DNA of 64,000 nucleotides, taken from positions 5,809 to 69,808 of the forward strand of contig CAWAZU010000037.1 of NCBI GenBank assembly GCA_963786445.1. The letters are read 5' to 3'. Origin of the DNA: an uncultured Pseudomonadota bacterium. Its GTDB lineage: Bacteria > Pseudomonadota > Alphaproteobacteria > Acetobacterales > Acetobacteraceae. The notes beneath the pieces are model-generated. The model was not told where the DNA came from. It ran no database searches and worked only from the letters and a program-made list of their open reading frames with translations. Positions 13,482 to 36,076 of this stretch are shown piece after piece. The first letter of the stretch is position 1. The number at the start of each line of letters is the position of its first letter. The translations under genes were made by a program, and so were the position numbers.

Positions 13482-14807
13482 ATGTCCGGAACACTTAACT
13501 CGGCCGACTACCAGACGGTCTGGAATGATAACTTTACGGAAAGCGCCTCGCTCGACAGCAGCCTGTTCCCGATTCAGTGGGGCGACGCCAGCGAGTTCTC
13601 ATTCGGCGGCAATGGGCTGACACTCACCTCCAACGGCACCGCTGCGGGCTTTCTGACGCCGGACCAAGGCGCCGGCGACTCCTACGGCTACGGTCTGTAC
13701 AGCGTAGCCTTCACCATGCCGACGAGCCAAGCGGCTGGAGCCTATATCTGCCTGTGGCCGGCAACAAACGACTGGCCGGGGCCAGAGATCGATCTGACGG
13801 AACAGCTAAACGGGCAGTCGTATCTGACGGTGCATTGGCAAGGCAGCGGCGACAGCAACCAGTACCAGTCGTTCTACTTCAACGCAAATACATCCCAGCC
13901 GACCACAGTGGCAGTGGATTGGGAGGCGAACAGCCTCACCTTTTACGTCAACGGAAAGGAAGTGGTGCAATATCCGTCTGGCGGCCCCGTCCCTGTTCCC
14001 AAAGACTACGCTGACGGCGGCGAGAACGAAGCATTCGGCATCGGCAATGTCGGCCCGTCGGGAACGGCGCTGACGGTTTCCGACATGAGCTATTCCACAT
14101 CTACCGGCGGCGGCTCATCAACTTCATCTACCGGCGCCGGCTCATCAACTTCATCTACCGGTGGCGGCTCGTCAACTTCGACTTCGTCGGGATCGACCGG
14201 AACATCGCCCAGCACAACGATCGACCTATCCAGCCCCGGCACTGTGCCGGAAACATCCGCTGGCGCCGGTGTGACAGTCCCGATCACGATTTCTGACCCA
14301 GGGTCGAGCGAAGTCTACGCCTTTGTCATGAATTCGAACAACGTGGCGGAGGAGAACTGGATACCAATCAGCCTCAACAGCCTCGGCCAGGCCACCTACG
14401 ATTTCCATTTCGAAAATACCGGCGATTATGTGCTGGCGGTGAATAACACAACGACCCAAACCGATCGTGGTACCTCCTCCCCCATCACAATCACCGATCC
14501 TGCCACTGCTCCCAGCAGTACGATTGAGGTGTCGAATCCCGGCACGCAACATGTCGCCAATACAAACGCTGGTGCCACCGTTCCGATCACTTTTTCCGAT
14601 CCTGGCCTAAGCGAAGTGTATGCATTCGTCATGAATTCCCACAACGTCGCGGAAGAGAACTGGATCGCGATACCGCTGAACTCCCAGGGGCAAGCGACGC
14701 ACGACTTCCACTTCGAACATACCGGCGATTACGTGCTGGCCGTCAGCAATATCAACACCGAGGCCGACAAAGGCTGGTCAGCGCCCATCACGATACTGCA
14801 TAGCTAA
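13482..14807 (+). CDS. GH16-like beta-glycanase with Ser/Thr/Gly linker and two C-terminal repeat domains
   Basis: WPATNDWPGPEIDLTE fits the GH16 ExDxxE catalytic motif. A STGGGSSTS x3 linker follows, then two roughly 95-aa domains that are highly similar (VYAFVMNS.NVAEENWI...DFHFE.TGDYVLAV). There is no N-terminal signal peptide. GC is lower than the flanks. Confidence 0.7.
   Translation: MSGTLNSADYQTVWNDNFTESASLDSSLFPIQWGDASEFSFGGNGLTLTSNGTAAGFLTPDQGAGDSYGYGLYSVAFTMPTSQAAGAYICLWPATNDWPGPEIDLTEQLNGQSYLTVHWQGSGDSNQYQSFYFNANTSQPTTVAVDWEANSLTFYVNGKEVVQYPSGGPVPVPKDYADGGENEAFGIGNVGPSGTALTVSDMSYSTSTGGGSSTSSTGAGSSTSSTGGGSSTSTSSGSTGTSPSTTIDLSSPGTVPETSAGAGVTVPITISDPGSSEVYAFVMNSNNVAEENWIPISLNSLGQATYDFHFENTGDYVLAVNNTTTQTDRGTSSPITITDPATAPSSTIEVSNPGTQHVANTNAGATVPITFSDPGLSEVYAFVMNSHNVAEENWIAIPLNSQGQATHDFHFEHTGDYVLAVSNINTEADKGWSAPITILHS
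14100..14180 (+). repeat. 3 x 27-nt tandem repeat encoding the STG(G/A)GSSTS linker
   Basis: tctaccggcggcggctcatcaacttca occurs three times with 1-3 substitutions per unit, in frame inside the GH16-like CDS. Confidence 0.9.
14792..14803 (+). repeat. Copy H of the recurrent GAWWCTGCATAG motif (function unknown)
   Basis: GATACTGCATAG. It overlaps the last codons and stop of the GH16 gene and lies 180 nt upstream of the ATG at 14983. Confidence 0.6.
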
Positions 14808-14982
14808 ACCACGCCTGCCCGCGCTCCGATCGGGCCTTTCCCGCGGCGCCTGCGCCGCCATCTCGTGCGCATCGCGTCGTCATCCCGGTCACGCCCGCGC
14901 GAATGGCGCAAGCAACACGACAGTTCCGGGCAACCGCCCGACGCTGGGCACGTTGGCGTGAGTTGGCTTGTAGGAGGCGGAA

Positions 14983-15225
14983 ATGGCGGTGTTTGAGGAC
15001 ATGTTTAAGGGTGCCAGTCTGCCCGGTCTCGCGGTCGGAATTGGGGTGGCGGTGTTGGTGCCGGTTGTGCTGCCGGCGGTTGGGCGGGCCTTGCGGCCGA
15101 TCGCGAAGTCCGTCGTCCGCACCGGCATCACCGTCTGGCGCGAAGCCTCCTCCCAGATCGCGGAGAGCACCGGGCCGATCGTCGCCGAAGCACGGTCGGA
15201 GATGGCTGCTGCGCGCAAGTCATAG
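14983..15225 (+). CDS. Small membrane protein, paralog 1 (DUF5132-like, assigned from memory)
   Basis: 80 aa. MAVFEDMFKG + hydrophobic helix GLAVGIGVAVLVPVVLP + amphipathic tail ending AEARSEM. Clear paralog of the 19388-19636 ORF. Confidence 0.65.
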   Translation: MAVFEDMFKGASLPGLAVGIGVAVLVPVVLPAVGRALRPIAKSVVRTGITVWREASSQIAESTGPIVAEARSEMAAARKS

Positions 15226-15281
15226 CGTAGTGTCATCGAGATTTCGCCGCAGCGTCACGCGGCGGTCATGCCCGCGTGTTA

Positions 15282-15309
15282 GCCGCCCTCTCGGTCATGG
15301 AGAGGCGGC
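15282..15309 (+). other. GC-rich hairpin overlapping the RBS of the 15316 gene
   Basis: GCCGCCCTCTC-ggtcatg-GAGAGGCGGC (10-bp stem with one bulged C). The 3' arm contains the GGAGAGG Shine-Dalgarno-like tract, and the ATG lies 7 nt after the stem. Confidence 0.5.
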
Positions 15310-15315
15310 GCGGCG

Positions 15316-15648
15316 ATGTTTCACGTTGCTCACGAATTGCCGGGACGGTTGCGGCTGCGCTCCTCCCGGCTCCGGCGTGACCCGGTGCTGACGGAGGCGA
15401 TGGCGGCGCGGCTCCGCACGTCGCCGGGGGTACTGTCCGTCACCGTCAGCCCGCGCACCGGCAGCCTGCTGATCCACCACGACGGCGCCCCCGGCCGCGC
15501 CGACGCCCTGCGCGCCAAGTTCGCCGTCACATCCGGGGCGCAAGCGCCGGGTCGTAGCGTGGACGCAGCGGTGGAGCGGCTGACCGCGGCGCTGCTGGGA
15601 CACATGGTCGAACGCCTGCTCGGCGCGGTGGCGGCGGCGCTGATCTAG
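15316..15648 (+). CDS. Stand-alone HMA-like (HMA_2-type) domain protein without cysteines
   Basis: 110 aa. HELPGRLRLRSSRL....PGVLSVTVSPRTGSLLIHHD parallels the N-terminal domain of the neighbouring P-ATPase. It has no Cys, so no CxxC site. Confidence 0.65.
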   Translation: MFHVAHELPGRLRLRSSRLRRDPVLTEAMAARLRTSPGVLSVTVSPRTGSLLIHHDGAPGRADALRAKFAVTSGAQAPGRSVDAAVERLTAALLGHMVERLLGAVAAALI

Positions 15649-16572: not shown

Positions 16573-16576
16573 CAGC

Positions 16577-19387
16577 TCAGATCGCCGCATCGCGCGCGCG
16601 CGCCTCGTTGACCAGATAGGGCACGAGGCCGCCGGCCAGAATCGCGGCGCTCGCGGCCGCGCCGACCGGGGTGACGCCGAGCAATCCGCGCACCCCGGGC
16701 AACAGCATCGCCGCCCCCTGCCCCGCCAGCGACAGCGCGATCGTGCCGGTCAGCACCCGGTTCGGCGCCCGCCCGACGCCGCGCGGACGGCAGGTGAAGG
16801 CGTGAAGCAACTGGGCAATGGTCAGGCTGCCGAAGGCGACGCTGCGCGCCTCCGCCCGGCCACGCACCAACAGGCTGCTCGCCAGCGCGCCGGACGCGAT
16901 CACCCCACCGTCCACGGCGAGCCGCCGCAGCGCCCTGCCGTCGATCACCGGAGCCTCCCGCGGCGGCGGCGGGCGCTGCATCAGCCCCGGCGCAGCATCC
17001 TCCGCGACCAGTGCCAAGCCGGGCATGACGTCGGAAACGAGGTTGATCCACAGCAGCTGCAAGGGCGTGAGCGCCGCCGCAGCGCCTCCGGCGGTCGCGG
17101 CCAGCACCAGCGCGATCTCGCTCAGATTGGTGCCGAGCAGGTATCTCGCGGCGCGACGCACATTCTCCCGCGCGGCGCGGCCGTGCCGCATGCCCGCCAC
17201 CACCGCCGCGAGCCCGTCGTCCTGCAGCACGATGTCGGCCACCTCGCGCGCCGCTTCGGCAGCGTTGCGGCCCATGGCGATGCCGACATCGGCCGCCTTC
17301 AGCGCCGGCCCGTCGTTCAGGCCGTCGCCTACCATGGCGACGGTGACGCCGGCGTTCTGCAGCACCTGCACGATGCGCAACTTCTGCGACGGCGTCACCC
17401 GTGCGAACACGTCGGTCTGCCGTGCCGCGGCGGCGAGGACGGCGTCGCTCAACCCATCCAGCGTGACGCCATCGATCACGCGCGGCCCGTCAGCACCGCC
17501 GAACCCGGCCGCGACCGCCACGGCCCGGGCCGTCGCGTTCTGGTCGCCAGTCAGCACCAGACAGTGCACGCCCGCCTGGCTCAACGCCGCGAGCAGCGCC
17601 GGCACCTCCGCCCGCAGCGGGTCGGATAGCCCGGCGATGCCCAGGAAGTCCAGGCGCGCAACCCGCGCCTCCGCCGCCGGCGCCAGGTGCGCGGACGCGA
17701 ACCCCAGCACCCGCAGACCCTCGCGCGCCATCGCGACGTTCCCTCGCTTGGCTTCGGCGCGGGCAGTCGGGTCGATTGCACACAGGTCGAGCACGGCGTC
17801 CGGGCTGCCCTTGACCGCAACCAAGGTGCCGCCGTCCGGCAGGGCGTGGAAGGTGGCCATGAAACGCCCGGATTCGCTGCGATGCTGCACGGACAGCCGT
17901 GGCTGCGCCGCCCGCAGCGCCGCCACGTCAAGGCCCGCCGCCTGGGCGCGCTCCAGCAGCGCCGTCTCGGTGGCGGACCCGAGCGGCGAGCCGTCGCCAT
18001 CGAGCTGCGCGTCGCTGCACAGCACACCGATTGCCAGCAGACGCCGCTCGTCGGCGGCGGCGATGGCGGCGACCGACATCAGATTGCGGGTCAGCGTGCC
18101 GGTCTTGTCGAAGCAGACCACCTGTGCCGCTCCCAGCGTCTCCAGCGCGTCGAGCCGGCGCACCAGTGCGCCCTCGCGCCGCATCGCCTCGATGCCCCGC
18201 GCGAGGGCCGCGGTGGCGACGGCGGGCAGCCCTTCCGGGATCGCAGCCACGGCAAGCGAGACCGACGTGGCGAGCGTCGGGCCGAGCGCCAGCCCGCGCA
18301 GCATGCCGATGCCGAACACCGACGCGCAGGCCAGCAGCGACACGCCGATCAGCCTTCGGCCAAGCTCCGCGAGCTGCCGTTCCATCGGCGTCGCGGGTCG
18401 CTTGGCGCTGCCCAGGAGGCGCTGGATGCGCCCCATCTCTGTCCGCGCCCCGGTCGCGACGGCGAGAGCCGTGCCGGTGCCGCCGGTGATCGCGGTGCCG
18501 CGGAAAACCATGTTGGCGCGCTCGGCAAGCGGCAGCTTCGCGCAGAGCGGGCCGGCGGTTTTCGCCACCGGCAGGCTCTCGCCGGTCAGCATGGCCTCGT
18601 TCACCGACAGTTCGCGCGCCTGCACGATCCGCGCATCGGCGGCGACCAGCGTGCCGGGACGCAACAGCAGCAGGTCACCCGGCACGACATCGGCGAACGG
18701 CACCTCGCGCGGCGCGCCGTCGCGCATCACGCGGGCGGTGGCAGAGGGCGGCCGGCTCAGGCCGGCGATGCGACGCTCCGAGCGGCTTTCCACGGCGTAG
18801 GCCAGGCCGCCGCTCAGCAGCAGCACACCGGCGATCGCCGCCGCTTCCAGCAGCGCGCCGGTGACCACAGAGAGCGTGGCGGCGCCGGCCAGCAGCAGCA
18901 CCGGCAGGGTCGCGAACTGGTCGGCGGCAATCGCGAGCGGCGGTCGCGGCTGACGCTGGTACAACGTGTTGCGGCTGACCTTCGCGAGTCGCGCCCGGGC
19001 CGCCTCGCTGCCGAGGCCATCCGTCGCCGAGGACTGCAGCGCGAGCGCCGCCGCACCGGCGTCCTGCGCCGGCCAATCCGGGTCCGCTTCGGGCGCCGCC
19101 GCGCGGCGGGCGGCCAGCTGCGCCAGCCGTCCGGCCACGCGCGCCAGCGGCAGCTCCGGATCGAACAGCACCAGGACGTTGCCCGTGCGCGCGCTCGCCG
19201 ACACGCCATGCACGCCGGGTTGCGCCGCCATACCCTGTTCGATGGCCGTGGCCAGGGCCGGCGCGCGACGCAGCTCCGTCAGGTGCAACCGCGCGCGGCC
19301 GGGAAGCGCGGCATGCACCACGCGCACACGCCGCCCGGCGCGACCGGCCGCGCCGGGCGGCGCGACCGCCCTGCCCCGCACATGCAC
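16577..19387 (-). CDS. Cation-translocating P-type ATPase (P2-like PEGLP type) with N-terminal Cys-less HMA-like domain
   Basis: 936 aa with TGES, IPEGLPAV in M4, DKTGTLT, TGDQ, MVGDGLNDGPALKAADVGIAMG and LLWINLVSD. The N-terminus is HAALPGRARLHL...RTGNVLVLFDP. There is no CPx metal motif. Confidence 0.85.
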   Translation of the reverse strand: MHVRGRAVAPPGAAGRAGRRVRVVHAALPGRARLHLTELRRAPALATAIEQGMAAQPGVHGVSASARTGNVLVLFDPELPLARVAGRLAQLAARRAAAPEADPDWPAQDAGAAALALQSSATDGLGSEAARARLAKVSRNTLYQRQPRPPLAIAADQFATLPVLLLAGAATLSVVTGALLEAAAIAGVLLLSGGLAYAVESRSERRIAGLSRPPSATARVMRDGAPREVPFADVVPGDLLLLRPGTLVAADARIVQARELSVNEAMLTGESLPVAKTAGPLCAKLPLAERANMVFRGTAITGGTGTALAVATGARTEMGRIQRLLGSAKRPATPMERQLAELGRRLIGVSLLACASVFGIGMLRGLALGPTLATSVSLAVAAIPEGLPAVATAALARGIEAMRREGALVRRLDALETLGAAQVVCFDKTGTLTRNLMSVAAIAAADERRLLAIGVLCSDAQLDGDGSPLGSATETALLERAQAAGLDVAALRAAQPRLSVQHRSESGRFMATFHALPDGGTLVAVKGSPDAVLDLCAIDPTARAEAKRGNVAMAREGLRVLGFASAHLAPAAEARVARLDFLGIAGLSDPLRAEVPALLAALSQAGVHCLVLTGDQNATARAVAVAAGFGGADGPRVIDGVTLDGLSDAVLAAAARQTDVFARVTPSQKLRIVQVLQNAGVTVAMVGDGLNDGPALKAADVGIAMGRNAAEAAREVADIVLQDDGLAAVVAGMRHGRAARENVRRAARYLLGTNLSEIALVLAATAGGAAAALTPLQLLWINLVSDVMPGLALVAEDAAPGLMQRPPPPREAPVIDGRALRRLAVDGGVIASGALASSLLVRGRAEARSVAFGSLTIAQLLHAFTCRPRGVGRAPNRVLTGTIALSLAGQGAAMLLPGVRGLLGVTPVGAAASAAILAGGLVPYLVNEARARDAAI

Positions 19388-19636
19388 TCAGACCGGCTCC
19401 GCGCTGCCCGGCTCGTGCATTTCGCTGCGCGCCTCGGCGGCGAGGTCGCTGGCGGTCTCGCTGACATAGCCGACGGCGCCCTGGACGCGGTCGTAGGCCA
19501 TCAGGCCCGCCTTGATCACCGCCTTGGCCGCCGGCCGCAGCACCGGGCGCAGGACAGGCAGCAGCACGGCCGCGCCGATCCCGACCGCGAGACCCGGACC
19601 AACTCCGCCCTCGAACATATTCTCGAACCACGCCAT
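19388..19636 (-). CDS. Small membrane protein, paralog 3 (DUF5132-like)
   Basis: 82 aa. MAWFENMFEGG...GLAVGIGAAVLLPVL...AAEARSEM. Its TGA stop is immediately followed by the ATPase ATG with a zero-nt gap. Confidence 0.7.
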   Translation of the reverse strand: MAWFENMFEGGVGPGLAVGIGAAVLLPVLRPVLRPAAKAVIKAGLMAYDRVQGAVGYVSETASDLAAEARSEMHEPGSAEPV

Positions 19637-20434: not shown

Positions 20435-21334
20435 TTAGAAGCGGAAGCCGACGGCGAGCACCGGGCCGTAGGCGACCAGATTAAGCTCACGTGAACTGCC
20501 GTCCGGCCGGACCTGGATGCTGCGGTCGGTGCCAAGGGCGGCAAAGGCAAGACCCACGTCGAGCCATCGCGTGATCAGGTAGGACGCGCCGAGCCGAGCG
20601 TTCCATCCCCATACGCCCCCATCGACACCCAGGCCCGTGATTGCCGACGCGAGCTCGATCCGCCAGTGCGGCGAGGGATAGTAGTCGGCGCGGAAGCCGA
20701 GCCATGGCTGCACGAAGTCGTAGCTGACGCTGGCCCCACCGAAGCGGGATTCTGCGAACGACACCGATGCGCTGGTCGCGAAATACGAGATGCCGGCGCG
20801 CACGTCGAAGGAGACGTTGTTGGGGGCAAAATTCGGAATGATCTGGTAGCCGATCCCCGGCGAGACGTATACGACAGAGTCGCTGGCCTCCAGCCTGGCT
20901 TGCGGCACATTGACCAGCGCCGGAAAGGTCTTGGTCTGGTGCGCCGAGATCCAATCGACGTCAAGCTCTGCGGACCATGGTCCGTAGCGGACCAGCCCAT
21001 CGCCGACGAACGCGCCGTTCAGTGAATCCACCAAGTTGGAAACCGTCACGCGGGGCCGGTTGATGCTGATATCCGTGCCGGGCGGCCGGTTCAGCCCGAT
21101 CGTCGCATTCAGCGCGGGCAGCCACAGATACGGCGTCAGCTCGACCTGAATACGATACGATCCGTCTGGCGAATAGCCATCCCGGTTAGAGAACAACTGT
21201 GCCCGCGCGGGCCCGGCAGACGTGATTGTGATCGCGAGGGCGGCCGCTACCAATACGCCCCCTGCGGCTGGCTTCGGCGGGATGTTGGCGATGCGTGCCA
21301 CACGCACGAGTTTGCCGCGATCACGGCCCATCAT
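20435..21334 (-). CDS. Putative outer-membrane beta-barrel protein
   Basis: Signal-like AALAITITSAGPARA. Alternating hydrophobic beta-strand pattern, aromatic-rich, with a terminal ...AVGFRF ending in Phe. The start is uncertain (the ORF extends to 21472). Confidence 0.55.
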   Translation of the reverse strand: MMGRDRGKLVRVARIANIPPKPAAGGVLVAAALAITITSAGPARAQLFSNRDGYSPDGSYRIQVELTPYLWLPALNATIGLNRPPGTDISINRPRVTVSNLVDSLNGAFVGDGLVRYGPWSAELDVDWISAHQTKTFPALVNVPQARLEASDSVVYVSPGIGYQIIPNFAPNNVSFDVRAGISYFATSASVSFAESRFGGASVSYDFVQPWLGFRADYYPSPHWRIELASAITGLGVDGGVWGWNARLGASYLITRWLDVGLAFAALGTDRSIQVRPDGSSRELNLVAYGPVLAVGFRF

Positions 21335-21473
21335 CGCCTCGCGCCTGCGTCGTACCAATCCGGTCAAGCCGGTCGGCTCTGCGATGCACTGGCGCGCCGG
21401 AACGGCCGACACCGGCGCCGGCACATGGCTGGCTGTTATCATGGCCGAACGGCTGCGGCCGTTCATGCGCATG

Positions 21474-21908: not shown

Positions 21909-22060
21909 TGCATGACCTCCTTCAGGGTATATTCCTCCGCTTCGCCAGCGCTTCTGGCGCTCCGGCAGCGGCGGAGGCCGTATTGAGGGATCCGACACGC
22001 CCCACTGAGGAGTTTGGCAAATCCCGCGGTGTCAGATTGAAATGCCGCCGGGCTTCCCGA

Positions 22061-22072
22061 CTATGCAGATTT
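22061..22072 (-). repeat. Copy A of the recurrent motif (AAATCTGCATAG on the minus strand)
   Basis: It overlaps the stop codon of the AraC gene and lies about 153 nt upstream of the start at 21908. Confidence 0.6.
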
Positions 22073-27436: not shown

Positions 27437-28771
27437 TCAGGCCGCCTGCGCCCTGCCGACCGCCGATGCCGGTCCACCCGCCAAGGTGCCGGTCGGTGCA
27501 CCGGCGTCCCACATCAGGCGCGGATCGAAGCCCTCCGCGGCGAGCATGGTCAGGATCACCACGGCACAAAACGCGACCGCTCCGGCGCCAGGCTCGATCG
27601 TGACGATCGTGCCGAACCGGACCAGCGCCCCTAGCAATGCCTCCATGAAGATGTCGATCATCGACCATCGCCCGATCCACCGCACGACATGGTAGAGCCG
27701 AGTTCGATCACGCAGCCACCCCGAGCGCCCGGTCTGCGTTGCGACCAGCATGACGGTGAGTCCGATGAGCTTCAGCATCGGCACCGCGATGCTGGCGAAG
27801 AACACAAGCGCGGCCAGCGGATACATGCGGGACGAGATCAGTTCCCGGACTCCGCCGATGATCGTGCTCGGCGTTCCGGCGCCCAGTTGGACGACGGTGA
27901 GCACCGGGTAGTAGTTGGCAGGCAGATAGAGCACCGCGGCGGCGATCAGCAACGCCCAGGTGCGCTGCACGCTGTTCGGCTTGCGCGCGTGCAGCACCGA
28001 GCCGCAGCGTGGGCAGCTTGCCTCATCATTCCCCACGACGCTGACCAGCCCGCAGGCCTCGCAACCGCGAGCATCTGCCAGCCGGCGCGGCGGCAGCGCG
28101 GGCACCGCCCCGCGGCGCCCCGGTTCGCGCCGGTCCAGTGCGTCCCATACGGCATCCCGGTCGAGCGCACCCTCCGCCCACACCATGACGAAGGTGAGCG
28201 CCAGGAGCGCGAACACACCTGTTCCGAGATCGATCGTCACCAGGTCGCCGAGTTTCACATAGGCGACAAAGACCCCGAAGACGAAGACCTCGATCATCGA
28301 CCAGGGCGTCAGCCGTTCGACCATGACGAATATGCGACGCAAGTGGCGCGGCGGTGTCGCTTCGTGCAGGCGGATCAGCACATAGAGGGTGCCTGCCAGT
28401 TTCGCGAACGGCGCCAGGGCCGTCGTGAAGAGGACAGTCGCTGCCAGCGGGCCCATTCCGCGCCGCAGCAACTCCACCGGTCCCGCGAAGAGGTCGGCAT
28501 GGTGCAGCATGCCCGCGGCCTGGACCCGCATCAGCGTCGTGGTGCAGACGACCGCCAGCAGCACGAGGGCCGAGAGGGTGAGAGCGATGCTGCGTTCCAG
28601 CGGATGCACCCGGGCGCGGCGCAGCGTGGTGGTGCAGCGGCTGCAGCGGGCAACGGTGCCGGGCGCCAGCTCCGGTATGACCTGGAATAGCCCACATCCC
28701 GGGCACTCGCGCAGAGCGGCTTCGGTAAGCCCATCGTCATCGGACGCCGCAATGGACCAGGGCGGCGTCAT
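27437..28771 (-). CDS. pqiA: Paraquat-inducible protein A family membrane protein (two PqiA modules)
   Basis: There are two CxxC...CxxC zinc-ribbon-like motifs (CPGCG...CSRC and CEACG...CPRCG), each followed by 4 TM helices. 444 aa. Confidence 0.8.
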   Translation of the reverse strand: MTPPWSIAASDDDGLTEAALRECPGCGLFQVIPELAPGTVARCSRCTTTLRRARVHPLERSIALTLSALVLLAVVCTTTLMRVQAAGMLHHADLFAGPVELLRRGMGPLAATVLFTTALAPFAKLAGTLYVLIRLHEATPPRHLRRIFVMVERLTPWSMIEVFVFGVFVAYVKLGDLVTIDLGTGVFALLALTFVMVWAEGALDRDAVWDALDRREPGRRGAVPALPPRRLADARGCEACGLVSVVGNDEASCPRCGSVLHARKPNSVQRTWALLIAAAVLYLPANYYPVLTVVQLGAGTPSTIIGGVRELISSRMYPLAALVFFASIAVPMLKLIGLTVMLVATQTGRSGWLRDRTRLYHVVRWIGRWSMIDIFMEALLGALVRFGTIVTIEPGAGAVAFCAVVILTMLAAEGFDPRLMWDAGAPTGTLAGGPASAVGRAQAA

Positions 28772-29385
28772 CGGGGCGCCGGCCCTGCTGTCAGCATGGC
28801 AGCCAGCCCGTCCGCAAGTTGGCCGACTGCGGAACTGATCGATGTCACCTCGGCGGTCGTGTCCGGCGAGGATGTCGGCGCGACGAAGCGGAACGTACGC
28901 AGGCGCGGCGCCCTCCGCCCCTTGACGTCAACTGACGCCTGGGCCTGCAGCACGAGTGCGCCGCTGGCGTCCTTGTCGAGCCGCTCGATATTGATCTCGA
29001 CCGTCGCATCGGCCGGAACGGACACGGCACCGCTCTCGTTCACGACCGCGCTCCCCGGCAGGCGCTGCCTCAGCTCCTCGGCCAGGAGCCTTCCCAGCAT
29101 CGCCGACAGCGGCTCCCCCCACCAGTCGTTGGCCATCACGTCGAGCCGATAGCCGGCCGAGGAGCGGACGATCTGCAACTGCTGCAGGTAGCGTGCGAGC
29201 GAAACCTCCCGCAGCCCGATCACTTTCGGTGCGCCGGCCTGTGTCTGCCCGGCGACGGGCGCGATCGTGTAGAGCGCCGGACGCGGCGAGCTGCAAGCGG
29301 CGACGGCGATCGCGAGCACGAAGCAGACCGCGGCGGCGGCGAGTGCAGGGCGACCCCGCGAGCTGGCTTCGCCTGCCGGCATCAC
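28768..29385 (-). CDS. pqiC: PqiC-like ABC-type transport auxiliary lipoprotein (DUF330)
   Basis: Lipobox AIAVAACSS. Size is about 205 aa and it sits directly after the MCE protein. It overlaps both neighbours by 4 nt. Confidence 0.65.
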   Translation of the reverse strand: MMPAGEASSRGRPALAAAAVCFVLAIAVAACSSPRPALYTIAPVAGQTQAGAPKVIGLREVSLARYLQQLQIVRSSAGYRLDVMANDWWGEPLSAMLGRLLAEELRQRLPGSAVVNESGAVSVPADATVEINIERLDKDASGALVLQAQASVDVKGRRAPRLRTFRFVAPTSSPDTTAEVTSISSAVGQLADGLAAMLTAGPAPR

Positions 29386-31112
29386 TCGACCCCGCCCTGG
29401 GGCCGGCCCTTGACCAGCGCCTCCGGGTGGCGCGTGAGCAGGTCGGACAGCGCCTGGATCGAGCGGACCCCGTCGTTCAGTTGAACCAGGAGCCGCTCCA
29501 GTTCGCGTTCGAACCTGGTATTGTCGCCATAGGCGGACCCGACCGATACCATCAGGCCGTTGGCTTCGGTCAGCGTCCTCTGCAGACCCGCCGCGATGTC
29601 GGGCAGTCGTTTGGCCGCGGGGGCAAAGCCCTTGTCCAGATTCTGCACCGTCGCCTGCGCGCTCGCCATTGTCGCTGCCATGGATGCGAGCGTCTGCTTG
29701 AGTTGCGCGCCTCCCGCGATGTCGTTCAGGTTCTGGGTGAGGTCGAGCACGTTCTTTCCGATGGTATCGAACGGGATGGCGTTCACCTTGGCCATCAACT
29801 CGCCTGCCGAGGCCGTCAGGCTGTTCAGCCCTCCTGAGTTGGTGGCCGGCACCACGAAGCTTGCGCCGTCCATGGTCACCGATGCCGGGGGCGCGCCATG
29901 GATGAACTCGAGTGCCACGACCTGCTGGCCGGTAAGCAGATTGCCGCTCTGCAGACTCGCCCGCAGGCCCTGCTTGAGCAGCGCGCCCACTCCCTCCGCG
30001 ACGGTGGCATAGGCGCGCTTGCCGATCCCGATCACGCGCTCCGGCTCGACATCGAAGTGTACCGGCGCCAGCACTGCATCGGCGGTGGCGTCGTAGGTCA
30101 GACGTACATCGGTGACGTGGCCAACCGTGAGGCCGCGCAGCGTCACCTCCGCGCCGGGTGCGAGGCCGCGGATCGAGCCGGTGAAGTAGGATACCAACGG
30201 AATTTTGCGGCTGTACGACGCACCTTCGGCAGCGTCCTGGTTCGGGAACAACGGAAAGGCGTGATTTACGGCGGCCATCGCGGCTGCGCTCTTGCCGCGG
30301 GGCGTATCGAAGGCAACGCCGCCCAGCAGCAGCGCGCGCAGCGATTCGAGCTGCACCTCCACGCCCGCTCCGGCCAGCTTTACGCTGACACCAGAAGCAT
30401 TCCAGAACCGCGTCTCGTCACGTACATACTTGTCAAAAGGCGCGCGCACAAATACGTGAATCGCAACGCTCTCTGCCATGTCGTCCACGTCCCAGCCCAG
30501 GACCTCGCCCACGGCGAGATCGCGGAAGAACACCGGCGAACCGACGGAGACCGCGTTCAGCCGGGCGCTGCGCAGCAGAAAGCTGCGTCCAGGCACGTCG
30601 GCTCGCAGGACGGGCGGGTCCTCCTGCCCAGCGAATTCCCGTTTTGCCTTGCCGCCGTCTGCTCCCGGCAGCATCCCGATGTAGGATCCAGAGATCAAGG
30701 TGCCGAGCCCGGACAGATTGCCGGCAAACAGCCGCGGCTTTTCCACCCAAAACACTGTCCTGTCGGTCAGCAGCGGCCGGGCTTCGCGCGTGGTCGCGAC
30801 CGTGACCAGAACGTGACTGTGGTCGCGCGCAAGAGCCAGCCTCTGCACCGTGCCAAGGGGGAAATCCCTGAACCTGAGCTGCGACTGGCCCGCCTGCAGG
30901 CCTTCGGCCCCTTCGAATGAAATCGTGATCGTTGGCCCCTCCTTGGATAGCGTGTTCCAGGCGAGCCAGAGCCCGATGACAATGGCGACGATCGGGATGA
31001 TCCAGATGATCGACAGACGCCGGGCTGCGCGAACAGAAGCGCGGCCGACGACGTGTGGGTTCGTGAGCTCGCTCATCCCTGATCTCCCTGTGCGCATGGT
31101 CGTGGACAACAC
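29382..31112 (-). CDS. pqiB: PqiB-like multi-MCE (MlaD-domain) intermembrane transport protein
   Basis: N-terminal TM helix IIWIIPIVAIVIGLWLAW, then repeated MCE-type modules (GLQAGQSQLRFRDFPLGTV..., SPVFFRDLAVGEV..., GAEVTLRGLTVGHV...). The alternative start is 31076. Confidence 0.8.
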   Translation of the reverse strand: MLSTTMRTGRSGMSELTNPHVVGRASVRAARRLSIIWIIPIVAIVIGLWLAWNTLSKEGPTITISFEGAEGLQAGQSQLRFRDFPLGTVQRLALARDHSHVLVTVATTREARPLLTDRTVFWVEKPRLFAGNLSGLGTLISGSYIGMLPGADGGKAKREFAGQEDPPVLRADVPGRSFLLRSARLNAVSVGSPVFFRDLAVGEVLGWDVDDMAESVAIHVFVRAPFDKYVRDETRFWNASGVSVKLAGAGVEVQLESLRALLLGGVAFDTPRGKSAAAMAAVNHAFPLFPNQDAAEGASYSRKIPLVSYFTGSIRGLAPGAEVTLRGLTVGHVTDVRLTYDATADAVLAPVHFDVEPERVIGIGKRAYATVAEGVGALLKQGLRASLQSGNLLTGQQVVALEFIHGAPPASVTMDGASFVVPATNSGGLNSLTASAGELMAKVNAIPFDTIGKNVLDLTQNLNDIAGGAQLKQTLASMAATMASAQATVQNLDKGFAPAAKRLPDIAAGLQRTLTEANGLMVSVGSAYGDNTRFERELERLLVQLNDGVRSIQALSDLLTRHPEALVKGRPQGGVE

Positions 31113-31401
31113 CGCGCCGCGGGCGCACAGACCCGCGCTCTTGGCGATTGAGCCCGCCAGGCCGTGACCGCGACGGCGGGCGTATCATCGCCGCGGAGCT
31201 GACGAGCAGCCGCTGCGAGGACGAGTTCGCGGCTCGGTGTCGTGCTCGATCAGTCAGAGGAGCGGTGTCGTCGACGGCGCCGCCAAGATTCCCGACGCCA
31301 GAAAACCAAACGCGGATGCTTGCGCCCCCCCGATATCCCATTGACCGGATTGCAGGAAACATCGGGTGTCAGCGACACTGTAGCGGCTTCGCCAGGGCCG
31401 A

Positions 31402-31626
31402 CTATGCAGTTTCGGCGAGCGGGGCGCCCCCGCTTTGGAACGCCGGTTGGCGATATTGCTCGCACGCTTGCTGGATCAGCGGTGACGAACACCGACGCTC
31501 CGAATACCGACCGTGTGCTGCCATCACATTGCCGTCATCCGGCCGAAATCTGCCCGTGCCTTGCGACATCGGCGCTCCCGACGCGATCCAAAAGCCACCA
31601 GCGTCCAGGACGCCGATTCTGCATAG
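31402..31626. repeat. Inverted pair of the recurrent motif (copies D and G) bounding 225 bp
   Basis: The left end is CTATGCAGTTTCGGCG. The reverse complement of the right end is CTATGCAGAATCGGCG (14 of 16 identical). It lies in the divergent region between pqiB (-) and the 31868 gene (+). Confidence 0.6.
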
Positions 31627-31867
31627 TCAGCCCATGCACCGTTGCCTCAAGATCACGCCGGCGATACTCGACGGCAACGTTGTCCATGCCAGGGAACATT
31701 CACCCGGCAACAAGGGCGGCGACCCGACCGCCGACGATGACCTGCTGTGCAGCCGACGGCATTCAACCCGCGCGGCGACACCGTCGAACAGGACATCGCT
31801 GCCTGTGCCGTCGGTAGCGCCAAGCCCGTCAACGTATCGATCATCGCGCGGAGATGGAGAGCGCGCT

Positions 31868-32461
31868 ATGCGCAATGACCCAGGTCAGACCTACGATCCC
31901 GCAGCGGTTGCCGCCAAAGGCGGCTCAGATAGACCTGGGCGAAACCTAAAGAAATGGGCGGTAGGAGAACTCAAGCAGTTTCTCATAATCACCCTGTATC
32001 TCTGGGCAATGTTGGCGCTGTTCAACTTCCATAAGACTATTGTTCTCGAACAGAATCACATCGACTATCAGTCCCAGGGATTCGCCATCGTCAACGCTCT
32101 GATATTGGCGAAAGTCATGCTGGTTGCCGAAGGTCTGCGCCTGGGCAATAGGTTTAAGGATCATCCGCTGATCTATGCAGTGCTTTACAAGAGCTTTGCC
32201 TTTGCCGTCGTCCTGGTCTGTTTCCACATCGTCGAAGGTGTGGCTGTCGCACTGTTGCGTAGCCAACCACTCACCGAAAATCTCGCCGAGTTCGGAGGCG
32301 GGGGCTTGAAAGGGATCGTGTCGGTGGGCGCGATCCTGTTCGTGGCGCTCATTCCCTTCTTCATGTTCCGCGAGGTCGCACGCGTGATTGGTGCCGACCA
32401 GCTATGGCAGCTGCTGTTCAGCCGCGGAACCAAGACGTTCACGCTGTCGGTCCAGGAGTGA
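31868..32461 (+). CDS. Hypothetical integral membrane protein
   Basis: 197 aa with 4 predicted TM helices (FLIITLYLWAMLALF, FAIVNALILAKVMLVA, FAFAVVLVCFHIV, IVSVGAILFVALIPFFMF). GC is lower than surrounding genes. Confidence 0.55.
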   Translation: MRNDPGQTYDPAAVAAKGGSDRPGRNLKKWAVGELKQFLIITLYLWAMLALFNFHKTIVLEQNHIDYQSQGFAIVNALILAKVMLVAEGLRLGNRFKDHPLIYAVLYKSFAFAVVLVCFHIVEGVAVALLRSQPLTENLAEFGGGGLKGIVSVGAILFVALIPFFMFREVARVIGADQLWQLLFSRGTKTFTLSVQE

Positions 32462-33387
32462 TGGTCACGTCTGGAAGCACTGGAGAAATCGCGATGGACG
32501 CGCCGATGTCCGGCCCCAGGCCGAAGCAGTTGTGGAAGCGCGTTTGCGCGCAGGTGCAGGCGGGAATTCGACGCTCGCTGCGAACGTGCCTGCCGGCATT
32601 GGTGATTGTCGGGCTGACGCCAGGCGGGCCGGTCGTGGCGCAGCAGTCAGCGGCCACCCCGACGCCGGCCGCTGCGCCGCCCACGATCGAGCCGGCGGCG
32701 GTCGCCATTCTCAAAGCCGCAACCGAGACACTCGCCTCCGCGAAAACCATGTCGTTCACTGCCGTAAGCACCTACGAACGCTTTGCGCTGAACGGACAAC
32801 CATTGTTCTACGCCACGCTCAATCAGGTGACGCTGCAGCGGCCGGACAAGCTGCGCGTGATCACCATCGGCGACGGGGTGCCTGACGAGTTCTATTATGA
32901 CGGCAAGACCATGACCGCCTATGTGCCGTCCCTTGACGTGGCGGCAGTGGCCGAAGCGCCGGCGACGATGGACGAGATGATCGACGCGGCATGGGACAAG
33001 GCGGCGATCTACTTTCCGTTCGACGACGTGATGCGCTCCGATCCCTATGCGGTGTTCGCGAAGGTGATGTCCTCGGCGTTCTACGTCGGCCAGTCGAAGG
33101 TGGTGGGCGGCATCACCACCGACATGGTCGCGGTGGCCGGCGAGGACGTGCAGGCGGAGATCTGGATCGGAACGGCCGATCATCTCCCACGCCTCGTGCG
33201 CGTCGTCTATCCGCACGAGCCCGCCCATGCGCTGTATCAGACCGAATATTCCGCGTGGCGTCTTGGAGAGACGTTGGCGCCTGGCGAGTTCACATCCGAG
33301 CAGGCGGCGAAGGCCAAGCGCATGCAGTTTGCGCCGCCCGGTCCGGGCGAGACGCCGCAGGCCGGCGAACCGCCGCCGCAGCGTTAA
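32461..33387 (+). CDS. DUF2092-like (LolA-fold) periplasmic protein
   Basis: FTAVSTYERF...TLQRPDKLRVITIGDG.PDEFYYDGKTMTAY...EAPATMDEMID resembles DUF2092. The start is uncertain (32461 overlapping the upstream stop, or 32494). Confidence 0.6.
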   Translation: MVTSGSTGEIAMDAPMSGPRPKQLWKRVCAQVQAGIRRSLRTCLPALVIVGLTPGGPVVAQQSAATPTPAAAPPTIEPAAVAILKAATETLASAKTMSFTAVSTYERFALNGQPLFYATLNQVTLQRPDKLRVITIGDGVPDEFYYDGKTMTAYVPSLDVAAVAEAPATMDEMIDAAWDKAAIYFPFDDVMRSDPYAVFAKVMSSAFYVGQSKVVGGITTDMVAVAGEDVQAEIWIGTADHLPRLVRVVYPHEPAHALYQTEYSAWRLGETLAPGEFTSEQAAKAKRMQFAPPGPGETPQAGEPPPQR

Positions 33388-33404
33388 CAGAGGAGCATCA
33401 TGTG

Positions 33405-34079
33405 ATGAGGACCGTTCTGTTGCTGGCAACGGGCTTGCTCTCGACCGGCCTTGGGTTGCAGGACGCGCAGGCCTGGATGCAACGGACCGCGGGCGGCGGA
33501 TACTCGCACGGCGGCAGTTACGGCGGCTTTCAGCACAGCACCAGCGTCGGGCCGCAAGGCGTGTCGCACGAAGGCAGCGCCGGCGGCTTCGAGCACGGCA
33601 CGGCCGCCAACTCGCAAGGTATGGCCCACGCCGGCGACGCCGGCGGCGCTTGGCACGGATCTGCGGCGAACTCGCAAGGTGTCGCGCATGCCAACGCGTA
33701 CGGCACCACGACGGCGTCCTCCGGGGCGTACTATCACCAGCCGCCTGCGGTGAACAACTACGCGGCTGGCGGTTGCTACAACTGCGGCGGCGGCTGGGGG
33801 GCGCCCGCCGGGGCGGCGGTGGTGGCCGGCAGCGTGGCGGCGGGCGCGATGGTGGGCGCCGCGGTCGCCAACACCGCGAATGCCAACGCCTATGCCGCTG
33901 GCGTGGCGGCCGGCGCCGTTGCACCGCATTACGCGATCGGCGCCAGCTACGCGGCACTGCCCACGGGATGCGCCTACAGCCCCTACGGGGGAGCGCCCTA
34001 CTACCAGTGCATGGGAGGCTGGATGGCGCCGGCCTACGGCGCCAACGGGGTCTACTATCGTGTTGTGGCGGCGCCCTGA
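33405..34079 (+). CDS. Exported Gly/His/Ala-rich repeat protein with Cys/Tyr-rich C-terminus
   Basis: AGGAG lies 9 nt upstream. Signal MRTVLLLATGLLSTGLGLQDAQA. There are degenerate repeats of the GG(F/Y).H....QG..H type, then CYNCGGGWG...CAYSPYGG.PYYQCMGGW. Confidence 0.55.
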   Translation: MRTVLLLATGLLSTGLGLQDAQAWMQRTAGGGYSHGGSYGGFQHSTSVGPQGVSHEGSAGGFEHGTAANSQGMAHAGDAGGAWHGSAANSQGVAHANAYGTTTASSGAYYHQPPAVNNYAAGGCYNCGGGWGAPAGAAVVAGSVAAGAMVGAAVANTANANAYAAGVAAGAVAPHYAIGASYAALPTGCAYSPYGGAPYYQCMGGWMAPAYGANGVYYRVVAAP

Positions 34080-34081
34080 TC

Positions 34082-34732
34082 ATGGGAATCGATGCATTCG
34101 CTCTACCACACAGCGCGAGGAATGCTTTGAAACCCGCATGGAGTGCCGACTGGGCGTGGGGTGTGCCACTCACGGCACTCACTCTCGCAATTCACGGCGC
34201 CGCTATCAGCATGATCGCGGTGCTGCTGACACGCACGGGAACACTGATCGAACGCCGGAGACCGGGGCAGACCGCAATGGCGCTGCTTGTGGCTGCGACC
34301 GTCGGTATCGTCGGCGGGACACTGGCGGTTCTCCATGGCGCGGAAGCGTCAATCTGGGCTGGTGCCTACCTGCTGTTGGGAGCCGTCGGCACACTGGCGG
34401 ATGCCATGCTGTATTCGGTCGACTCCATCACGGCACGCGGGTCGTCAGGGCTGGAACTCCAGCCCCACTGGAAAATGTTGGGGGCTTTGGAGGCGGTCAA
34501 TGGGTTGCTGCTGTTCGGCATCAGCACCGCGTTCCTGGTTTCCGTCATCACTGAAGTTTGGAGCCTGCTTCGCAGGTTGGCCCGCGGGCTGGAAAGGAAC
34601 CCTGCCGTCATGCCGGATAGCGAGATGGACCGAGCAGAATACGCGATCGTCCAGCACAAGCGTGGGCAGCACCAGGACCTGTTGCGGAACCGGCGCGCAG
34701 CAGCGTTGTCCGCGCTTCGCCCGCCCACATAG
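34082..34732 (+). CDS. Two-TM ion-channel-like membrane protein with degenerate selectivity-filter region
   Basis: The helix-pore-helix layout (WAGAYLLLGAVGTLADAMLYSVDSITARGSSGLELQP...LEAVNGLLLFGISTAFLVSVI) resembles the Ion_trans_2 family, but ITARGSSG replaces T.GYGD. The 3' tail runs into an IS630 remnant on the opposite strand. Confidence 0.4.
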   Translation: MGIDAFALPHSARNALKPAWSADWAWGVPLTALTLAIHGAAISMIAVLLTRTGTLIERRRPGQTAMALLVAATVGIVGGTLAVLHGAEASIWAGAYLLLGAVGTLADAMLYSVDSITARGSSGLELQPHWKMLGALEAVNGLLLFGISTAFLVSVITEVWSLLRRLARGLERNPAVMPDSEMDRAEYAIVQHKRGQHQDLLRNRRAAALSALRPPT

Positions 34733-34843
34733 GCGCGGCATCTTGGCGGCAGCCCTGGTCTCGTCGATGAGCACCAGGTACGCCGGATCGAGCACATCAA
34801 TGCAGCCGTCGTTGTCTGCCGAACCTCGGCGGACACAATGGGA
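34650..34843 (-). mobile_element. IS630-family transposase fragment (remnant)
   Basis: IDVLDPAYLVLIDETRAAAKMPRLCGRAKRGQR matches the DDE_3 region around the first catalytic Asp (consensus LVFIDETgakTnMtRlyGRAprGeR). There is no intact ORF and no inverted repeats were found. Confidence 0.55.
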
Positions 34844-34880
34844 CCTTCAGAAAGCCCATCATCGCAGAAGTCGGTGCTTT

Positions 34881-35249
34881 TCAGCTCTTGATTTTCCAGG
34901 TTCCGTCCGCCGTACGGCACCAGGTCAGGTCGTACGGACGGGGCGGCGTGCGCCCCTGCGCGGCGATCTCGTGGTGCAGGAGGTGGCAGGGGAGACCCGC
35001 CGAGTTGAAGATGCGCGCAACCGTCGAGCTGCCGTGGCTGCCGGTCGCCGGGTTGCTCCAGCCTTCGGACGCGCCGACCCGAATTGAACTCTCTGCGTTC
35101 AAACGTGCGATGCTTGCGAGCATCTGGTTGAGGTCATCGCCGGAAAGCTGCGGCCCGTATTTGCTGCTCCGGAACGGATTGATCTGCGCCAGCGCAGGCA
35201 GCGGCACCGCCAGGAGCAGAGCCATCGCCAGGCGTCGCACCGTTTTCAT
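34881..35249 (-). CDS. Exported surface-antigen-like protein (COG4520-type, assigned from memory)
   Basis: Signal MKTVRRLAMALLLAVPLPALAQ. The pattern W.NP.TG..G........G..C.......WCRT.DGTWK is typical of small alphaproteobacterial surface-antigen domain proteins. Confidence 0.5.
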   Translation of the reverse strand: MKTVRRLAMALLLAVPLPALAQINPFRSSKYGPQLSGDDLNQMLASIARLNAESSIRVGASEGWSNPATGSHGSSTVARIFNSAGLPCHLLHHEIAAQGRTPPRPYDLTWCRTADGTWKIKS

Positions 35250-35331
35250 CCCGCATTCTTCATATGATCGGCGCTGCGCAGGTGAGGCGGGCGGCGTTCC
35301 AAGCCTCTCGCAAGCGAGCATCCCCGGTCGC

Positions 35332-35862
35332 TCATTTCATCGAAATGAAAATGGCATCGCCGCCGAGGCTGAGCATCAACCCCGTCCGCTTCGCCTTGAG
35401 GTGCATGACGACGCCGTTCTCGTTCTGCATCCACAGATCGCCGCCGCTCTGCGTTCCGAATGCAAACCCATAGCGGCCCTGCGCATAGCTGCCCGGGAAT
35501 TGGCCAAGACTCGAAAGATGATAGACATCGCCTGTGGCGTCGAGGGTCGAGGCACCGATGCCGCCGATGCCGGCTCCGCCCACGGTGAACGGGTAGCTGT
35601 GTCCCTGGTAATACAGCACGCCGCTGCCGACGTTCCCGCTGGCGATATAGGCGGCCTGTACCTGGTGCATCTCCACTCTACCCGACGGCGGCTGCCCTTC
35701 CAGCGCCGTCGCGCCGCCGGGCGCCGACTGGCCGGAACAGGCCGCCAGCACCAGCGTCCAGGCACCCAGCAGCACTCCGGCGAGCACCGCTGGCCGGCAC
35801 GTCGGCTGCCGCGACTCAGCGTGCCGATCGTATGCGTGTCGGCCGCGGCCACGTGTGCTCAT
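35332..35862 (-). CDS. Gly-rich lipoprotein, paralog of 21474-21908
   Basis: Lipobox LVLAACSG. YYQGHSYPFTVGG...NENGVVMHLKAKRTGLMLSLGG aligns with the 21.5-kb protein. Confidence 0.6.
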   Translation of the reverse strand: MSTRGRGRHAYDRHAESRQPTCRPAVLAGVLLGAWTLVLAACSGQSAPGGATALEGQPPSGRVEMHQVQAAYIASGNVGSGVLYYQGHSYPFTVGGAGIGGIGASTLDATGDVYHLSSLGQFPGSYAQGRYGFAFGTQSGGDLWMQNENGVVMHLKAKRTGLMLSLGGDAIFISMK

Positions 35863-35987
35863 CCGACGATCTCTCTCTGCCCCGTTACCGCCGCCCGCGT
35901 CACTCTGTTCCCGGCACTGCACAGATGCTGGTTCCCAATCGCTCGCCGCCGCCGTGGCGAAGGGTGGGAGCAAGTGGGGATGGCTGG

Positions 35988-36076
35988 CTATGCAGATTCG
36001 ACGGTGCTCGGAATCGTGCGGCGCTGTCCGCAACTGCATGGGCTGCGGCTTCGCGCACCTGACCGAAACTGCATAG
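35988..36076. repeat. Inverted pair of the recurrent motif (copies E and F) bounding 89 bp
   Basis: The left end is CTATGCAGATTCG and the right end is CGAAACTGCATAG. It lies in the divergent region between 35862 (-) and 36246 (+). Confidence 0.6.

Follow-up and report, generated by a model that had tools for sequence, protein, structure and literature searches.

A putative AraC/XylS-type operator in front of envelope genes of an uncultured member of the Acetobacteraceae

Regulators of the AraC/XylS family in which an N-terminal sensor is joined to two C-terminal helix-turn-helix (HTH) motifs are predominantly activators, and many full-length AraC proteins bind DNA as dimers. AraC itself recognizes 17-bp asymmetric half-sites at araI, each contacted in two blocks; the promoter-proximal half-site, I2, overlaps the −35 region by a few base pairs, and the regulator is autoregulated. 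The marbox of MarA, SoxS and Rob has the consensus AYnGCACnnWnnRYYAAAY, and pqiA of E. coli is induced by SoxS. XylS recognizes the box TGCA-N6-GGNTA, of which the promoter-proximal copy overlaps the −35 of promoter Pm (PMC4225500), and the marbox of class II promoters is centred between −36 and −55, overlapping the −35 (PMC12052159). Here we describe an element with the core CTGCATAG that recurs in a 64-kb stretch of DNA (contig CAWAZU010000037.1; the whole stretch, with a G+C content of about 68% overall, is called the window) from an uncultured alphaproteobacterium of the Acetobacteraceae, together with the AraC-type regulator, AraC1, encoded in the same stretch. Homologs of the DUF2092 protein encoded there assign the DNA to Acetobacteraceae-like Alphaproteobacteria.

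We propose that an asymmetric operator, of which CTGCATAG is probably the promoter-proximal half, serves as class II activator site of an uncharacterised cupin-AraC/XylS regulon with autoregulation. Enrichment, extended motif, orientation, intergenic location, −10 phasing, ortholog conservation and AraC linkage were computed directly.

The window contains nine exact copies of CTGCATAG, where 0.72 were expected from 100 dinucleotide shuffles (maximum 3), an excess of about 12-fold. Eight of them had been listed in an earlier reading made from the letters alone (the sequence-only reading), and all eight were found in place and on the right strand; a ninth, at 32173-32180 (−), had been overlooked. 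Since this copy sits within the CDS (coding sequence) of a membrane protein (31868-32461, +), the remark that no copy lies inside the body of a coding region was wrong. The two overlaps with stop codons were correctly seen, and the TAG of the copy at 22061 is the stop codon of the AraC1 gene.

The 8-mer is only part of what is conserved. In 80 loci around homologs of DUF2092, taken from species-representative genomes (1.39 Mb; the DUF2092-anchored set), the 8-mer as such is near background (33 copies), and the copies upstream of genes share the 17-mer TTGCCGAAWnTGCATAG, followed by Y and C/G. A larger set of sites shows two further upstream positions (w, T) to be weakly conserved. The operator is therewith about 19 bp long, (w)(T)yTGCCGAAWnTGCATAG(Y)(C), with a core of 17 bp, in which an A-rich spacer separates two conserved blocks, TGCC and GCATAG, at a distance of about one turn of the helix. 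The 17-mer is asymmetric and not a palindrome, has an information content of about 24 bits over 17-19 contiguous bp and repeats TGC at positions 2-4 and 11-13 with a period of 9 bp. The extended form proposed earlier corresponds to positions 6-19 of this motif. A position weight matrix (PWM) trained with non-window sites only recovers the good sites of the window with scores of 12.7-29.4. At a score of at least 15 the window has 8 matches, versus a mean of 0.33 in shuffled windows, and the matrix found a diverged site (23123-23139) outside the earlier list. The sites of the window, with the hexamers discussed below, are:

22061-22077, minus strand: operator TTGCCAAATCTGCATAG, PWM 29.4, −10-like CAATCT at 22034-22039
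23123-23139, minus strand: diverged operator CGGCCGATATCGCATAG, PWM 17.0, −10-like CACGCT at 23097-23102, AraC1 ATG at +98
24157-24173, minus strand: operator GGGCTGAATCTGCATAG, PWM 20.8, −10-like CAGGTT at 24131-24136, ATG at +162
26041-26057, minus strand: operator CCGCCCAATCTGCATAG, PWM 12.7, −10-like TAGCCT at 26014-26019
31402-31418, minus strand: operator TCGCCGAAACTGCATAG, PWM 26.8, −10-like CAGTGT at 31375-31380
31610-31626, plus strand: operator ACGCCGATTCTGCATAG, PWM 20.2, −10-like CAAGAT at 31648-31653
35988-36004, minus strand: operator CCGTCGAATCTGCATAG, PWM 17.5, −10-like CACCCT at 35961-35966
36060-36076, plus strand: operator TGACCGAAACTGCATAG, PWM 24.1, −10-like CATGGT at 36097-36102
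14787-14803, plus strand: doubtful copy ATCACGATACTGCATAG, PWM 11.0, in the last codons of a GH16-like CDS
32173-32180, minus strand: chance copy of the 8-mer, PWM below 8, without A-W-W prefix, on the strand opposite to CDS 31868-32461

The copy at 32173-32180 fits chance; the A-W-W prefix is common to the other eight. The copy at 14796 may be a second chance copy: it has no nAnnnT at +37/+38, and shuffled windows contain 2.3 matches each at PWM ≥10. With a mean of 0.72 the probability of at least two chance copies is about 0.16. That two of the nine 8-mers (32173 and perhaps 14796) look like chance could be extended to all of them, or the copies could be taken for a mobile or structural repeat of the REP (repetitive extragenic palindrome) or MITE (miniature inverted-repeat transposable element) type or for an RNA element. 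We regard this as hardly credible in view of the excess over shuffles; moreover, similarity among the copies stops about 20-33 nt around the motif (within ~20-30 nt), there is no palindrome, Rfam gave 0 matches, and the motif occupies conserved orthologous positions across genera. A literature search on CTGCATAG or GCATAG returned primers alone.

Promoter geometry was assessed with nAnnnT, the two most informative positions of a −10 hexamer, as proxy. Counted from motif base 1, nAnnnT is concentrated at +37 (12) and +38 (10), together 22 of 46 sites, versus about 1.5 per other offset. In the window it follows 20-21 nt past the motif at all eight good sites (binomial p ~1e-10), and in the independent metagenome set it is phased at 104 of 141 unique sites (74%) versus 5.5% of random positions. 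The downstream hexamer is generic, (T/C)AnnnT. Placing it at −12 to −7 puts the 17-mer at about −49 to −33, centred at about −41. TAGYCR, formed by the last three motif bases and the next three, then has the position of the −35 hexamer, with a spacer of 17-18 nt to the −10; it agrees with TTGACA at 3-4 of 6 positions and is a poor −35. No consensus sigma-70 promoter was found across 21-37 kb of the window, which fits activator dependence. Read from the sequence, the motif thus appears with the attributes of a class II activator site: a fixed orientation, overlap with the −35, a centre between −36 and −55 and a fixed distance to the −10.

Location was evaluated with the 56 matches of PWM ≥15 in 1.45 Mb (DUF2092-anchored loci plus window). 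A gene start lies 25-350 nt downstream in motif orientation for 54% of them and in the opposite orientation for 9%, compared with 23.5% for random positions, and 5% of the matches versus 45% of random positions are in strongly coding-like frames. A scan of coding versus intergenic location and of orientation was what the sequence-only reading had named as capable of refuting its proposal, and the motif came through it. The claim that the copies stand upstream of, and point to, genes of exported or envelope proteins holds for seven of the eight listed copies, each of which has the extended 17-mer, a properly spaced −10-like hexamer and, in motif orientation, a downstream gene for an exported or membrane protein; for the 14796 copy it is doubtful.

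A site that overlaps the −35 region could also be the operator of a repressor, AraC1 or another protein occluding the −35 of otherwise constitutive promoters, and with 3-4 of 6 matches basal recognition of TAGYCR is conceivable. We nevertheless think a repressor operator quite unlikely: strict orientation and a phasing of 20-21 nt are expected of recruitment, not of occlusion, the region has no consensus promoter, and AraC/XylS members of such architecture are mostly activators. Very improbable is that the motif is the −35 element of a promoter for an alternative sigma factor, of the ECF (extracytoplasmic function) type or other. The fixed distance to the hexamer and the envelope theme are typical of ECF regulons; however, with some 24 bits spread over 17-19 contiguous bp the motif is too long to be a −35 element. 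The hexamer that follows is a generic, weakly conserved TAnnnT/CAnnnT and not a −10 of the ECF kind; the genes of the window at 20-42 kb include none for a sigma or anti-sigma factor, and the linked gene is that of an AraC regulator.

Several described elements were compared with the copies and their flanking sequence and rejected. For a sigma-54 −24/−12 promoter (TGGCAC-N5-TTGCW) the GG 11 nt upstream of the core TGC is absent from every copy (flanks inspected). The CcrM site GANTC is present in 3/8 copies only. A sigma-28 −10 (GCCGATAA-like) would go with a TAAA −35, which is not conserved, and the targets are non-flagellar; for an RpoH −10 (CCCCATNT-like) the spacing is wrong. The Pho box consists of CTGTCAT repeats with an 11-bp period, whereas the period of the motif is 9 bp. 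A contiguous T7/SP6-like promoter ending in ATAG was dismissed because there is no single-subunit RNA polymerase and a −10 hexamer follows the motif.

The regulator that is linked to the motif is found by comparing loci chosen for different proteins. Two AraC-type genes are present in the window:

22061-23041, minus strand: AraC1, 326 aa
26138-27215, minus strand: AraC2, with one frameshift near 26587-26592

A second set of 80 metagenome loci (385 kb; the AraC-anchored set) was chosen solely for encoding an AraC1 homolog (44-56% identity); the protein scan was made with alignment A3, used instead of alignment A2, whose nine AraC paralogs were too diverse for a pattern scan. The motif (PWM ≥13; 174 matches) is carried by 77 of the 80 loci. 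A site lies 50-144 nt before the AraC gene in 53 of 68 loci with enough upstream sequence, and a site starts −13 to +36 nt from the end of the AraC gene in 61 of 77 loci with downstream sequence, in both cases always on the strand of the AraC gene. Short contigs with the AraC gene alone still show sites on both its sides. As at 22061 in the window, the AraC gene has the TAG of the motif for its stop codon in nine unrelated metagenome loci, and TTGCCAAATCTGCATAG and its variants encode the last AraC codons, ...(L/F)A(K/E/D)SA-stop (examples are L090, L114-L116, L139, L142, L147 and L148). Because the operator doubles as last codons, the C-terminal tail of the regulator and the next promoter share bases. 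The sites upstream of AraC genes are systematically weaker variants, e.g. CTTCCGAAG..GCATAG; in the window this is CGGCCGATATCGCATAG, which marks the putative autoregulatory promoter of AraC1, and the variant GATAT-n-GCATAG is found upstream of AraC1 orthologs in L065 (2924-2940) and L164 (9750-9766). The genes after the end-of-AraC site mostly encode arylsulfatases, the formylglycine-generating enzyme (FGE), lipoproteins of the OmpA-like type, DUF2092 proteins and small exported proteins. On the Bradyrhizobium japonicum plasmid pS11L-1 the annotated order is motif, helix-turn-helix regulator, motif, FGE, arylsulfatase; B. japonicum S11L-Bj has the AraC1 homolog WP_304501400.1.

In the DUF2092-anchored set, in which 23 of 80 loci carry the motif, AraC1 homologs occur in 7 loci, and the motif is present in 6 of these 7 versus 17 of the 73 others (Fisher p=0.002). 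These numbers bear on the question whether the motif could be the operator of a different, unlinked factor, e.g. an OmpR-type response regulator acting on TGC...TGC, with the AraC genes as mere members of the regulon. The TGC direct repeat would suit such a factor, and most of the motif-bearing DUF2092-anchored loci have no AraC homolog within 10 kb. We consider an unlinked factor unlikely because linkage to the AraC gene (77/80) is far tighter than linkage to the target gene (23/80); in addition, AraC-only short contigs keep their flanking sites, the repeat has a period of 9 bp rather than 10-11 bp, and the box-N6-box layout fits AraC/XylS operators. AraC1 is therefore our candidate for the cognate regulator of the motif. 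The suggestion, made from the window alone, that one of the local AraC proteins might serve the element has in this way gained support from the AraC-anchored loci, with binding itself predicted from sequence, and the broader proposal, that the element is the operator of a regulon or a promoter element and belongs to an envelope programme, is supported by orientation, intergenic bias, −10 phasing and the linkage to AraC1.

AraC1 has a Pfam HTH_18 domain (E=2.9e-15) and no Pfam match for its N-terminal domain. Its AlphaFold2 model (pLDDT 90) consists of an N-terminal beta-barrel (strands 5-116), a helical linker and seven C-terminal helices. The double HTH is evident from Foldseek matches (TMt 0.82-0.85) to isolated AraC DNA-binding domains and to SoxS, and the N-terminal part, a cupin-like effector/dimerisation domain, matches CuxR, ToxT, Rns, the regulatory domain of RhaR and cupins. 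The N-terminal family comprises 713 clusters at 50% identity (E<=1e-10). Against the curated NCBIfam families AraC1 gave sub-threshold matches only (AndR, EutR), and the names of its homologs in the databases are generic; the best curated sequence match is the XylS-like AndR, far below its cut-off.

With XylS, the regulator of Pm in Pseudomonas putida, AraC1 shares the N-terminal beta-barrel sensor and the two C-terminal HTHs. The operators are alike at 7/9 specified positions (TGCA-N6-GGNTA versus TGCC-N6-GCATA), and in both systems the promoter-proximal copy overlaps the −35. However, the two direct repeats of Pm accommodate a dimer, whereas only one site is conserved here, so that the arrangement is not that of XylS, and XylS targets a catabolic pathway instead of exported and envelope proteins. 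The likeness to MarA, SoxS and Rob is in the site, which is single, asymmetric, orientation-specific, about 20 bp long and located at the −35 with its centre between −36 and −55; furthermore, both regulons are rich in envelope genes, and the AraC1 model can be superposed, by its DNA-binding domain, on the SoxS of the micF class II complex (7w5w). The motif is not a marbox, since it lacks the YAAA block of RE2 and AraC1, with 326 aa, has a sensor domain, which MarA and SoxS do not have; the lineage, Alphaproteobacteria, is also different. The best full-length matches of the AraC1 model are CuxR from Sinorhizobium meliloti, ToxT and Rns, which combine a cupin-like domain with a double HTH and are all activators of surface or secreted products. 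With identities of 9-13% and TM-scores of 0.28-0.41 their domain arrangement differs from that of AraC1; their ligands (c-di-GMP, fatty acids) are not transferable, and their operators are unrelated in sequence. AraC at araI, finally, uses paired half-sites and DNA looping, neither of which is seen for the motif.

From these comparisons the following mechanism can be envisaged. The AraC1 subfamily (AraC1 and the frameshifted AraC2) would bind the operator, probably as a single site, with the two HTH motifs reading the TGCC and GCATAG blocks in adjacent major grooves, as the layout of the XylS-like box and the geometry of the class II marbox suggest. By analogy with class II promoters, the bound AraC1-type protein would contact the housekeeping RNA polymerase holoenzyme, recruit it to promoters with a weak −35 and thus drive transcription. 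The weaker site before the regulator gene would provide autoregulation, and the strong site at or over the regulator stop codon would drive the next gene. Eight promoters between 20.4 and ~39 kb would thereby drive a compact envelope regulon made up of the Gly-rich/outer-membrane protein pair, an exported hypothetical protein, the arylsulfatase, pqiBCA, the DUF2092 unit, lipoproteins, an exported protein with DUF3300/DUF2950, and AraC1. Direct binding of AraC1, activation rather than repression, the positions of the transcription starts and the sensing of a signal are the steps that we infer.

Several observations weigh against this mechanism. A site overlapping the −35 could equally suit a repressor, and all positions relative to +1 depend entirely on the −10 hexamer deduced from sequence. 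In the alignment of sites no second half-site is conserved upstream of the motif (<0.15 bit per column), at odds with the dimeric DNA binding of many full-length AraC proteins, so that binding would be either monomer-like or with a non-conserved partner site. The many motif-bearing DUF2092 loci without an AraC homolog nearby imply that the regulator often acts from a distance or that a different factor binds. AraC2 is frameshifted in this assembly. The variants of operator block 1 (TGCCG, TTCCA, TTCCG) co-vary with AraC sub-clades, which we did not use as evidence because the co-variation is inseparable from phylogeny.

Pfam assignments and open reading frame (ORF) analysis of the window gave the following gene map around the sites, to which the two AraC genes above belong:

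13482-14807, plus strand: GH16-like protein
14983-15225, plus strand: DUF5132 protein
20435-21472, minus strand: outer-membrane protein
21474-21908, minus strand: Gly-rich exported protein
23388-24011, minus strand: exported hypothetical protein
24280-25944, minus strand: arylsulfatase (sulfatase family assigned)
27437-31076, minus strand: pqiA, pqiC and pqiB (pqi families assigned)
31868-32461, plus strand: membrane protein
32494-33387, plus strand: DUF2092 protein
33405-34079, plus strand: Gly-rich exported protein
34082-34732, plus strand: membrane protein
34881-35249, minus strand: 17-kDa-antigen-like protein
35332-35862, minus strand: lipoprotein
36246-36644, plus strand: exported protein
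36774-38165, plus strand: DUF3300 protein (Pfam)
38178-39146, plus strand: DUF2950 protein (Pfam)

The operator at 22061-22077, with an ATG and Shine-Dalgarno sequence at +169, is predicted to serve the promoter of the unit made up of Gly-rich exported protein (21474-21908) and outer-membrane protein (20435-21472); its layout, AraC stop then motif, is also that of L065, L076 and 61 of 77 metagenome loci. The operator at 24157-24173 is predicted to serve the exported hypothetical protein (23388-24011), the L033 ortholog of which is also preceded by the motif. Downstream of AraC2, the operator at 26041-26057 is predicted to serve the arylsulfatase promoter; many metagenome loci, as well as pS11L-1, have the order AraC, motif, (FGE), arylsulfatase in common with the window. 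For the operator at 31402-31418 the predicted target is pqiB-pqiC-pqiA (31076 down to 27437), and for that at 31610-31626 the four-gene unit of membrane protein, DUF2092 protein, Gly-rich exported protein and membrane protein (31868-34732). The site at 35988-36004 is predicted to serve the lipoprotein (35332-35862) and probably the 17-kDa-antigen-like protein (34881-35249) too; the site at 36060-36076 is predicted to serve the exported protein (36246-36644), with transcription probably continuing into DUF3300 and DUF2950.

The sites at 31402-31626 and 35988-36076 form two divergent back-to-back promoter pairs with the operators directed outward; the first bases are 192 bp (31418/31610) and 56 bp (36004/36060) apart. 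A weak extra site (36025-36041, PWM 9.4) is located 35 bp upstream of the 36060 site, and in L135, L142, L147, L148 and L153/L154 two same-strand sites are 45-46 bp apart upstream of the AraC gene. Such paired nearby sites could be auxiliary sites or tandem promoters. One further match of the window, GTGATGAATTCGCATAG at 62265-62281 (−; PWM 16.6), was rejected for want of a phased −10 and is probably not a functional site. Its base 1 lies 44 nt, and the end of the 17-mer ~27 nt, before the start codon of a gene (61266-62237, −) for a FeeM/LuxI-like N-acyl amino acid or autoinducer synthase. The missing −10 hexamer makes this match and the copy at 14787-14803 doubtful.

AraC2 is a paralog of AraC1; the two proteins are 54% identical over the DNA-binding domain and 27% over the N-terminal part. 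A single frameshift splits AraC2 into two ORFs, of which the one of 126 aa is a frameshift product, and an L065 homolog aligns across the break in two frames; AraC2 is either a pseudogene or affected by an assembly indel. An AraC paralog comes after pqiBCA in the window as well as in L065 and L164, an order that suggests read-through feedback. The Gly-rich exported protein (21474-21908) and the lipoprotein (35332-35862), both predicted to be motif-driven, are paralogs that cross-match in tblastn and have a DNA repeat in common (21544-21576 / 35399-35431, 85% identity).

The GH16-like gene contains a 27-nt tandem repeat in three copies (14098-14178, 93-96% identical) and a 228-nt internal duplication (14264-14794, spacing 303 nt, 71% identity); the doubtful 14796 copy is right at the end of the second unit of this duplication. 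Two small DUF5132 proteins are encoded within 14983-15648 (+) and 16577-19636 (−). Next after one of them comes an HMA_2 protein; the other stands ahead of a P-type cation ATPase of 936 aa with its own N-terminal HMA_2-like segment, and the theme "DUF5132 + HMA_2" is thus duplicated around the ATPase.

The G+C content is 63-66% across 12-36 kb versus about 70% in the flanks, and the envelope island with the motif may be of horizontal origin; the related island in L164 has 68.6%. In metagenome-assembled genomes of Alphaproteobacteria from different genera the motif is found upstream of the same genes: before DUF2092 operons (L003, L004, L012, L013, L032, L061, L063, L065, L069, L076 and L079), before pqiB (L063, L065, L076 and L164), before the 35332-type lipoprotein (L010 and L023), before sulfatase-like genes (L008, L023 and L033), before the 23388-type protein (L033) and before DUF3300 and an OmpA-like gene (L164). 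Searches for close relatives of the window proteins yielded little: a scan of genome contigs for which only PqiB was used gave no relative, PqiC was not on record as an exact protein, and a lookup of the DUF2092 protein gave two short Logan contigs and nothing else.

Activation by an AraC/XylS protein at a class II promoter is a textbook mechanism; for the regulator subfamily, the operator and the regulon no earlier description was found. Literature searches on the motif, DUF2092 and DUF3300/DUF2950 found nothing on regulation, and a search on AraC with arylsulfatase, FGE and Bradyrhizobium nothing relevant. In a genome survey of root-nodule bacteria the DUF3300/DUF2950 pair stood out as universally co-localised and secreted, without assigned function and induced in two cited RNA-seq transcriptome studies (PMC4653623).

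On balance we incline to the view that an envelope regulon so far undescribed is widespread among Alphaproteobacteria of soil and plants (Acetobacteraceae, Stellaceae, Bradyrhizobium and others) and that several paralogous cupin-AraC sensors share one operator in it. With the same modest leaning, such a regulon would couple PqiABC lipid transport, the LolA-like DUF2092 and DUF3300/DUF2950 to a small-molecule signal, and likewise the arylsulfatase with its FGE maturase and the OmpA-like and Gly-rich lipoproteins; the regulator gene would often carry the operator in its last codons (xAxSA-stop). The motif would then bring some 20 genes without known function under common control as a single envelope module. 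This module organises a gene island of ~18 kb in the window and is met again in many Alphaproteobacteria of soil and on the symbiont plasmid of B. japonicum. With the PWM, members of the regulon can be annotated in further genomes. If the proposal is true, one regulator and one motif provide a handle for the function of several large DUF families, and DUF2092, DUF3300, DUF2950 and PqiABC would become experimentally tractable through a defined operator and its regulator.

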